A stretch of 64,000 nucleotides of DNA, taken from assembly GCF_003334305.1 (NCBI RefSeq), contig NZ_QOWS01000011.1; one strand, written 5' to 3'. How positions within the stretch are numbered: position 1 is the stretch's first letter; each line of letters begins with the position of its first letter. The notes beneath the pieces were generated by a model. The model was given only the letters and a program-made list of their open reading frames with translations. It made no database searches and was not told the DNA's origin. This stretch comes from Escherichia coli. GTDB lineage: Bacteria; Pseudomonadota; Gammaproteobacteria; Enterobacterales; Enterobacteriaceae. Made by a program: the position numbers and the translations under genes. This document shows, one piece after another, positions 31,641 to 32,693 of this stretch.

Positions 31641-32693
31641 ATGTTTTTAGTATCATTGTTGAGACGTATTGCATTTAGTTACTACGATTATAAAGCTTAT
31701 AATTTTAATATTGAAAAAACAGACTTTGTTGTCATACATATTCCCGATCAGATTGGCGATGCTATGGCCATCTTTCCTGTTATTCGGGCGCTTGAATTGC
31801 ATAAAATTAAGCATCTATTAATTGTTACGTCGACAATTAATTTAGAAGTCTTTAATGCGCTCAAACTTGAACAGAATAAATTAACATTAGTCACAATGAC
31901 TATGCAGGATCACGCAACATTAAAAGAAATAAAAGATTTAGCGAAGAACATAACACTGCAATACGGTACGCCGGATCTTTGTATAGAGGCGATGCGTAAA
32001 AAGAACCTGAAAACGATGATATTTATCAGTCAGTTGAAAGCAAAAACGAATTTCCAGGTCGTCGGTTTAACCATGAAGTGCTATTCCCCTTTGTGTAAGA
32101 ACGCGTCCCGGATGGATCAGAATCTCCGGGCTCCTGTACCCATGACATGGGCATTTATGATGCGTGAGGCGGGTTTTCCGGCAGTCAGGTCAATATATGA
32201 ATTGCCATTAAGCGATGATGTACTCGATGAGGTACGCGAGGAAATGCGATCGTTAGGATCTTACATTGCGCTCAATTTAGAAGGTAGCTCGCAGGAACGT
32301 ACATTTTCATTATCGATTGCAGAAAATCTAATAGCAAAAATTCAAAGTGAAACAGATATGCCAATAGTGATCGTTTATGGACCCAAAGGGGAAGATAAAG
32401 CCAGGGCATTAGTGGATTGTTATAATAATGTCTACCGTTTATCCTTATCACCCTCGATTAAACGTTCAGCAGCAATTATAAAAGATGCTTATATGGCAAT
32501 AACTCCTGACACCTCAATATTACATATGGCAAGCGCCTATAATACCCCTGTTGTTGCAATTTATGCTGATTACAAAACGCGATGGCCCGCAATGGCCGAT
32601 GTTTCGGAGTCAGTCGCCGTTGGGCAAAAAATTGACAATATAAGTCTGGATGAATTCGCAAAGGCATTAAAAAGTGTTTTGGCGAGAATTTGA
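31641..32693 (+). CDS. yeeL: YeeL-like glycosyltransferase family 9 (heptosyltransferase-like) protein, apparently intact
   Basis: 350 aa from ATG 31641 with GAGG upstream (ORF track starts at 31578); position between shiA and yeeJ; family call is by position and recalled annotation, not by recognised motif. Confidence 0.55.
   Translation: MFLVSLLRRIAFSYYDYKAYNFNIEKTDFVVIHIPDQIGDAMAIFPVIRALELHKIKHLLIVTSTINLEVFNALKLEQNKLTLVTMTMQDHATLKEIKDLAKNITLQYGTPDLCIEAMRKKNLKTMIFISQLKAKTNFQVVGLTMKCYSPLCKNASRMDQNLRAPVPMTWAFMMREAGFPAVRSIYELPLSDDVLDEVREEMRSLGSYIALNLEGSSQERTFSLSIAENLIAKIQSETDMPIVIVYGPKGEDKARALVDCYNNVYRLSLSPSIKRSAAIIKDAYMAITPDTSILHMASAYNTPVVAIYADYKTRWPAMADVSESVAVGQKIDNISLDEFAKALKSVLARI

Follow-up and report, generated by a model that had tools for sequence, protein, structure and literature searches.

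An intact yeeL allele of Escherichia coli encodes a divergent glycosyltransferase family 9 protein, a likely accessory ADP-heptose transferase of the LPS core

To our knowledge, all glycosyltransferase family 9 (GT9) enzymes characterized so far use ADP-heptose. Escherichia coli K-12 has four GT9 paralogs, WaaC, WaaF, WaaQ and WaaU, of which WaaC (HepI) is represented by the structures 2GT1, 2H1H and 6DFE, and WaaF (HepII) by 1PSW. WaaU (HepIV) and LbgB-type D,D-heptosyltransferases make dispensable core decorations. AAH and TibC, heptosyltransferase-like enzymes of the BAHT group, are encoded beside their adhesin substrates and possess a conserved Cys cluster that binds iron, and TibC structures exist in the PDB. 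In HepI, D13 is the catalytic base; D13, K192 and D261 are conserved and are important as judged by mutagenesis, and K192 is reported to be completely conserved in heptosyltransferases (PMC5713226).

The yeeL gene of K-12 appears in the literature as a pseudogene used as a neutral integration site in strain engineering and in one mutation list, and our searches of the literature on yeeL, including its combinations with heptosyltransferase, glycosyltransferase and LPS, found no functional study of the intact protein. In this study, we analyzed a 64,000-nt stretch of E. coli DNA (contig NZ_QOWS01000011.1 of assembly GCF_003334305.1; designated as the window), in which the yeeL position carries an intact allele. 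This allele encodes a GT9 protein that we consider likely to serve as an accessory ADP-heptose transferase on the LPS core. The features of the locus are as follows.

30010..31326, minus strand: shiA, divergent and upstream of yeeL, coding for a 438-aa MFS transporter that has the RefSeq name shiA in matching strains
31578..31640, plus strand: in-frame upstream extension from TTG in the ORF list (21 codons, 371-codon reading)
31624..31634, plus strand: Shine-Dalgarno-like GGGAGGCGAGG, read from the sequence, putative in function
31641..32693, plus strand: intact yeeL CDS, 350 codons plus TGA, coding for a divergent GT9 (heptosyltransferase-like) protein
32343..32345, plus strand: codon 235, CAA (Gln), which is TAA in K-12
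32821 onward, minus strand: yeeJ remnant, an Ig-like/invasin ORF, convergent and downstream of yeeL

The initial annotation had described one uninterrupted ORF of 350–371 codons occupying the yeeL position, and both statements hold. The ORF list of the window gives an uninterrupted frame at 31578..32693 (plus strand) of exactly 371 aa when read from TTG, or 350 aa plus a stop when read from the ATG at 31641, and the frame lies between shiA and the yeeJ remnant, matching the gene order shiA–yeeL–yeeJ of K-12. A 314-bp intergenic region separates shiA from yeeL. The locus is the yeeL position, and the gene in the window is an ortholog of E. coli yeeL. Its G+C content is 38.8%, compared with 53% for the window. 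Because low G+C makes stop codons frequent (approximately 6.5% per random codon), we estimate the chance of 371 open codons at about 1e-11, and an open frame of this length in AT-rich DNA is not there by chance; its translation also has full-length homologs. The 350-aa form is the real product, because the orthologs from five genera (Escherichia, Pseudocitrobacter, Erwinia and Rosenbergiella among them) start at a Met aligned with 31641 and RefSeq uses the same ATG and the same 1053-nt CDS. The GAGG of GGGAGGCGAGG ends 6 nt before this ATG, and the segment 31578..31640 is probably an untranslated leader rather than a part of the protein. A scan for promoters and terminators gave matches not above the shuffled expectation, with no convincing sigma-70 promoter or terminator, and Rfam detected no family in or around yeeL. 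The AT-rich gene may be poorly expressed.

Intact yeeL is already known and ordinary, being annotated in thousands of genomes. The window DNA is 100% identical over 1501 nt to RefSeq-annotated DNA whose CDS is WP_000480488.1, "glycosyltransferase family 9 protein"; this record is the protein of the window gene without any difference, and its name is a family-level annotation. The cluster of 98%-identical 350-aa proteins has 10,923 member sequences. Apart from yeeL, a BLAST comparison of FDAARGOS_497 with the window showed 99.06% identity over 25.5 kb, with indels; FDAARGOS_497 carries a "cbl frameshifted" flag, which we do not transfer to the window, where the cbl frame is open.

In K-12 MG1655, yeeL (b4497, 2052276..2053328, minus strand) is 1053 nt long and flagged as a pseudogene. 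Translation showed that its sole lesion is a premature in-frame stop: codon 235 reads TAA in K-12 and CAA in the window. Frameshifts and insertions are absent. The genes, at the same locus and of the same length, are colinear, with 44 substitutions, no gaps and 95.8% nucleotide identity, and their products differ at 18 amino acids besides codon 235. Aligned in this way, the window gene has no frameshift or truncation relative to intact homologs, and the K-12 gene is not intact. The description of K-12 yeeL as a split pseudogene was accurate as to the pseudogene, whereas "split" applies only in that a nonsense codon interrupts the K-12 gene. The state of the neighboring gene is reversed: K-12 has an intact yeeJ and a broken yeeL, whereas the window has an intact yeeL and a deleted yeeJ remnant.

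The distribution of the two alleles was determined in 5426 complete E. coli genomes using 55-mer queries with the SNP at position 28, so that every 28-nt megablast seed must include the SNP. CAA was present in 3644 genomes and TAA in 771; the locus was matched in 5284 genomes, with at least 80% of the query covered in 4924. TAA235 occurs in K-12 derivatives and BL21 as well as in numerous wild isolates of human, poultry, pig and cattle origin; BL21-RIPL, the strain sampled from the B lineage, has the CAA-to-TAA change at codon 235. Because the carriers include wild isolates, TAA235 is a natural polymorphism and not a laboratory artifact. At this position, an amino acid is encoded in every one of the 30 family members aligned, which identifies CAA, the majority state, as the ancestral state and TAA as the derived one. 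Of the proposal that the window carries the functional ancestral form, the ancestral part is thus borne out by the 30 sense residues and the CAA majority, while functionality is supported indirectly, through the dN/dS values, the catalytic residues and the GT-B model described below.

In the Pfam check suggested by the initial annotation, the window protein matches Glyco_transf_9 (PF01075), albeit weakly (E = 7.6e-7) and only over residues 232–320. Across the family, the same profile matches all 30 aligned members at E ≤ 0.001, the best at 2.4e-21. Against the NCBIfam models for heptosyltransferases I, II and III (TIGR02193, TIGR02195 and TIGR02201), YeeL scores 40, 19.7 and 17.8 bits, far below the respective curated cut-offs of 185.3, 134.6 and 170.2, and it is 14–18% identical to WaaC, WaaF, WaaQ and WaaU of K-12. 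A single-sequence search of the PDB with YeeL gave no match at E ≤ 1; a YeeL family profile matched 3TOV at 1e-20, WaaC at 6e-12 (over the full length) and WaaF at 1e-10. The AF2 model of YeeL is compact and confident (pLDDT 94.3, pTM 0.91), and its best PDB matches by Foldseek are 3TOV, 1PSW (WaaF), 6DFE and 2H1H (WaaC), with the GT-B fold of two Rossmann-like domains and TM-scores of 0.65–0.74. Outside the enterics, the closest relatives in AFDB come from Halomonadaceae and carry the name "ADP-heptose:LPS heptosyltransferase" or LbgB (TM 0.90–0.94). The family is small: of 1.84 billion proteins, 487 representatives reach E ≤ 1e-3 and 72 reach E ≤ 1e-10. The residues of YeeL that align with functional residues of HepI are encoded as follows.

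31758..31760, plus strand: GAT codon of Asp40, the aligned counterpart of Asp13, which is the catalytic base in E. coli HepI/WaaC
32298..32300, plus strand: CGT codon of Arg220, aligned with Lys192 of HepI, a conservative replacement typical of the subfamily
32505..32525, plus strand: nucleotide-sugar-binding motif P289-D290-T291-S-I-L-H295, aligned with D261-T-G-x-x-H266 of HepI

D40 is invariant both in an alignment of nine sequences (A1) and in the alignment of 30 family members (A2), and P289, D290, T291 and H295 are likewise invariant in the 30 members. The column of K192 has R in YeeL and four orthologs and K in WaaC, WaaF, WaaQ and WaaU; in A2, it holds R in 27 and K in 3 of the 30 sequences, so the positive charge is kept while the residue differs. 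HepI positions T187, T188 and E222 are not conserved in the YeeL alignment. Given the divergence at these three positions and the Arg in place of K192, ADP-heptose is a putative donor of YeeL.

YeeL resembles HepI and HepII in its GT-B fold (TM 0.63–0.69 to 2GT1, 2H1H, 6DFE and 1PSW), in the full-length profile match and, for HepI, in the catalytic Asp (D13, corresponding to D40) and the D261/H266 pair (corresponding to D290/H295). It differs from them in its 14–15% identity, in falling below the equivalog cut-offs, in the Arg at the K192 position and in an N-terminal extension of approximately 27 residues (predicted helix at 2–14), which is absent from WaaC, WaaF and WaaQ; unlike their genes, yeeL is a lone gene outside the waa cluster. 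WaaU, the closest of the four K-12 paralogs (18% identity), has an N-terminal extension too, and LbgB-named proteins are among the structural neighbors of YeeL, but the sequence relationship to both WaaU and LbgB is remote. The best solved match by both profile (1e-20) and fold (TM 0.73) is 3TOV, a GT9 protein of Veillonella parvula from structural genomics that is 15% identical to YeeL; it is uncharacterized, so it adds nothing on the mechanism. Together, the alignments and the model indicate that YeeL belongs to a bona fide but divergent GT9 subfamily and is an ortholog of no characterized heptosyltransferase.

Selection on yeeL was assessed by pairwise comparison. Comparison of the window allele with intact alleles distant from it gave a dN/dS of 0.12–0.25 (dS approximately 0.08–0.12), and the mean over 26 intact–intact yeeL pairs was 0.21, compared with 0.04 for shiA in the window–K-12 pair. 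By these values, intact yeeL is under purifying but relaxed selection, clearly more relaxed than that on shiA. Of eight yeeL alleles sampled at regular intervals across the range of identity, seven were intact 1053-nt genes, and that of BUCT2930 had an independent stop at codon 60 while retaining CAA at codon 235. Other genomes carry yeeL with IS1, IS5 or ISKpn26 insertions or with truncations, and structure databases hold many fragment entries of YeeL, two of them from CFT073. Relaxed selection fits a dispensable accessory function and the repeated losses.

Full-length YeeL orthologs with 52–72% identity are present in a divergent Escherichia lineage, E. albertii, Pseudocitrobacter, Erwinia and Rosenbergiella. 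They occupy eight distinct contexts, each as a single gene, and no partner gene is conserved.

Pseudocitrobacter: shiA / GT9 gene / mtfA, without yeeJ
Divergent Escherichia lineage (P0043): hchA / GT9 gene / mtfA
E. albertii: near yciA
P0069: maeB / GT9 gene / eut
Erwinia persicina: adjoining an MFS transporter gene unrelated to ShiA
Erwinia sp. S43: between a hydrolase gene and a LysR-type regulator gene
Rosenbergiella: adjoining an MFS transporter gene unrelated to ShiA
Erwinia aphidicola: within a degraded P2-type tail module

The neighbor in Pseudocitrobacter is a true ShiA (90% identical), with YeeL there being 65% identical. Because a true ShiA lies beside YeeL in that genus without yeeJ, the order shiA–yeeL–mtfA is suggested to be the old arrangement and yeeJ a later arrival. 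An MFS transporter was considered as a conserved partner, since such genes adjoin the GT9 gene in four genera, and was rejected: the transporters of Rosenbergiella and Erwinia are related neither to each other nor to ShiA, a true ShiA occurs only in Pseudocitrobacter, and we regard the MFS neighbors as coincidence or synteny. More distant members of the family (33–35% identity) were located on long contigs in three cases, all beside genes for Wzy_C (WaaL/Wzy family), Bac_transf and GT1/GT2/WecG proteins; one of the three also adjoins a second GT9 gene and a weak Pfam match to ABC1 (kinase family).

A phage origin and a role in defense were also considered and rejected. A tblastn search of YeeL against 50,697 phage records found nothing, so no phage genome in that set carries the gene; PHROGs family phrog_27389, which is essentially identical to YeeL, was interpreted as a gene of the chromosome that a prophage prediction had included. 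In Erwinia aphidicola, the copy lies next to a truncated sheath gene in the P2-type tail module; it has inserted into a prophage in decay and does not point to a phage function. PADLOC gave no match to a defense system.

From the stand-alone gene, the location of distant relatives in LPS/O-antigen clusters and the names (ADP-heptose:LPS heptosyltransferase or LbgB) of the nearest predicted structures outside the enterics, we infer that YeeL most likely functions as an accessory transferase that depends on ADP-heptose and modifies the LPS core or outer core, or else a related lipid-linked glycan. YeeL, a 350-aa cytoplasmic GT-B enzyme, is probably active and probably takes heptose from ADP-heptose. 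Asp40 would be the base activating the hydroxyl of the acceptor, and Asp290, His295 and Arg220 would hold the sugar nucleotide within the C-terminal domain. The acceptor would most likely be a lipid-linked surface glycan under assembly on the cytoplasmic side of the inner membrane, and our best guess is that YeeL decorates the LPS core or outer core in a dispensable and non-stoichiometric manner. Such a decoration would explain why the gene has no partner genes, why it has moved singly between chromosomal sites and why it has been lost repeatedly. The lack of a conserved partner fits a donor (ADP-heptose, supplied by housekeeping genes) and an acceptor that are already in the cell.

Several other explanations were weighed against this role. 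The enzyme might be active with the GT9 fold and yet use another donor, a non-LPS acceptor (O-antigen or ECA intermediates, a capsule primer or a small molecule), or both. The lack of conservation at T187, T188 and E222 together with the Arg at K192, the scores far under all curated cut-offs for LPS heptosyltransferases, and the Bac_transf and Wzy_C neighbors of the distant relatives, which also serve O-antigen and exopolysaccharide pathways, all point that way. The characterized GT9 enzymes that we know of are nevertheless all ADP-heptose users, every one of the closest structures, solved or predicted, is of the heptosyltransferase type, and a partner for sugar-nucleotide synthesis is found in none of the eight contexts, as fits a donor that the cell already makes; we regard this explanation as rather unlikely. 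We hold it to be distinctly improbable that the open frame is a silent or decaying relic, that is, horizontally acquired AT-rich DNA contributing nothing in this strain. A relic would account for the G+C of 38.8% in a window of 53%, the lack of a good promoter or terminator match, a dN/dS several-fold above that of shiA and the frequent independent inactivations (TAA235 in 771 genomes, the stop at codon 60 in BUCT2930, IS insertions, truncations and fragments). Against it stand dN/dS values of 0.12–0.25, well under 1 over a dS of about 0.1, full-length orthologs at 52–72% identity in at least five genera, catalytic and donor-binding residues that are invariant in 30 of 30 members, intact genes in seven of the eight sampled alleles and a compact, confident model.

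The proximity of yeeL to yeeJ in E. coli brings to mind AAH and TibC, which are likewise encoded beside their adhesin substrates, and YeeL might be a protein heptosyltransferase that glycosylates the neighboring inverse autotransporter YeeJ or another adhesin. All of the comparisons made speak against this, and we consider it extremely unlikely. The likeness to the BAHT enzymes lies in a heptosyltransferase-like gene beside an adhesin gene, but yeeL and yeeJ are convergent and therefore not co-transcribed, and an adhesin neighbor is absent from all eight ortholog contexts, among them those of Pseudocitrobacter, divergent Escherichia, E. albertii, Erwinia and Rosenbergiella. The intactness of the two genes is uncoupled: in the window, E2348/69 and AR_0061, yeeL is intact and yeeJ is a remnant or annotated as incomplete or frameshifted, the reverse of K-12. 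The yeeJ remnant of the window has an internal deletion of approximately 3.7 kb and lacks both ends. The family profile does not match TibC even at E ≤ 10, while it matches WaaC at 6e-12, and TibC is absent from the top 50 Foldseek matches in the PDB. YeeL has four Cys residues (114, 147, 152 and 260), none of which is invariant or nearly so in the family, in contrast to the Cys cluster of the BAHT enzymes, and two papers on YeeJ and inverse autotransporters are silent on glycosylation and yeeL. A broader proposal is that YeeL founds a second, unrecognized class of surface-modifying heptosyltransferases whose target is a protein, such as an adhesin, or a position of the LPS core that has escaped notice because most work on core chemistry used strains or conditions without YeeL. 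We think this very unlikely; if it were true, the enzyme would be present in most wild E. coli and absent from the laboratory strains K-12 and B, and the standard picture of the surface would miss a common modification.

As a discovery, the intact allele carries small weight, given that the gene is already annotated and that the pseudogene status in K-12 is standard knowledge. YeeL is an orphan GT9 enzyme, with an accessory ADP-heptose transferase on the LPS core as the preferred reading of its role. K-12 and BL21-RIPL lack this probably active surface-glycan enzyme, which approximately two thirds of complete E. coli genomes retain as judged at codon 235, and a slight difference in envelope chemistry between laboratory and wild strains may result.

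The states of yeeL and its neighbor yeeJ are reversed between K-12 and the window: yeeL is broken and yeeJ is intact in K-12, whereas the window carries an intact yeeL and a heavily deleted yeeJ remnant, which was identified by its match to K-12 yeeJ. The matching parts are as follows, with K-12 coordinates on the reverse complement of yeeJ.

32821-35310, minus strand: yeeJ, heavily deleted remnant
32909-34540: remnant segment 1, K-12 yeeJ 386-2020
34511-34984: remnant segment 2, K-12 yeeJ 2303-2777
34986-35308: remnant segment 3, K-12 yeeJ 6471-6802

Compared with K-12 yeeJ, the window copy has an internal deletion of approximately 3.7 kb and lacks both ends (385 nt at the 3' end and approximately 220 nt at the 5' end). 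RefSeq flags the yeeJ region of a 99%-identical strain as frameshifted and incomplete. Truncated yeeJ has been tied to recombination at the adjoining tRNA-asnT site, and a pathogenicity island is mentioned in that context (PMC5595812). An AT-rich spacer (G+C 31-35%, 35400-36400) separates the remnant from the yersiniabactin genes, and no fourth tRNA-Asn copy was found beside the remnant, which is the asnT site in K-12. Three tRNA-Asn genes of the window lie no more than 4.3 kb apart, with nac, cbl, and yeeO in between.

22635-22710, minus strand: tRNA-Asn (GTT), copy 1
25044-25119, minus strand: tRNA-Asn (GTT), copy 2
26868-26943, plus strand: tRNA-Asn (GTT), copy 3
approximately 36300-44900: fyuA, ybtE, ybtT, ybtU, and irp1 (yersiniabactin), placed by correspondence with 16913-25501 of the FDAARGOS_497 locus

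In E. coli FDAARGOS_497, these genes of the yersiniabactin high-pathogenicity island lie immediately past the yeeJ remnant. The 1501 nt around yeeL are 100% identical between the window and this strain, but identity is only 99.06% across 25.5 kb (window 19408-44900; 225 mismatches and 5 gaps), and the source of the window is a related strain other than FDAARGOS_497 itself. In addition, cbl is flagged as frameshifted by RefSeq in FDAARGOS_497, whereas it is an open frame in the window (approximately 24014-25006). This frame reads VNFQQL at the point where K-12 Cbl begins with MNFQQL.

Apart from the K-12 stop, yeeL has been inactivated independently several times. The copy in E. coli BUCT2930 (542-1594 of its locus) has a stop at codon 60, and other copies from complete E. 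coli genomes (hits H8, H17, H24, and H38-H40) exhibit IS1, IS5, and ISKpn26 insertions and 3' truncations. CFT073 YeeL is present in AFDB as two fragments of 206 and 172 aa, and a protein-cluster search returned large clusters of partial YeeL proteins from Shigella sonnei.

PHROGs contains a "phage" family of unknown function, phrog_27389, that matches YeeL almost perfectly from end to end (window 31641-32690; E = 3e-226). None of 50,697 phage genome records encoded a YeeL homologue, and phrog_27389 is probably a chromosomal gene caught in an over-extended prophage prediction. Erwinia aphidicola CP188307.1 possesses a 61% identical homologue on the opposite strand, flanked by a P2-type tail sheath gene, which lacks its first approximately 130 residues, and a tail-fibre gene; the whole region spans locus positions 8329-12397. 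This homologue is a single-gene insertion in a decaying P2-like prophage, showing that the YeeL gene moves alone.

More distant relatives (33-35% identical) on three metagenomic/Logan contigs (L016, L026, and L027), which by fold search are probably from Halomonadaceae, share a recurring neighborhood of GT9, GT2, Wzy_C, and Bac_transf genes, and the ancestral role of the YeeL subfamily may be defined by this arrangement.
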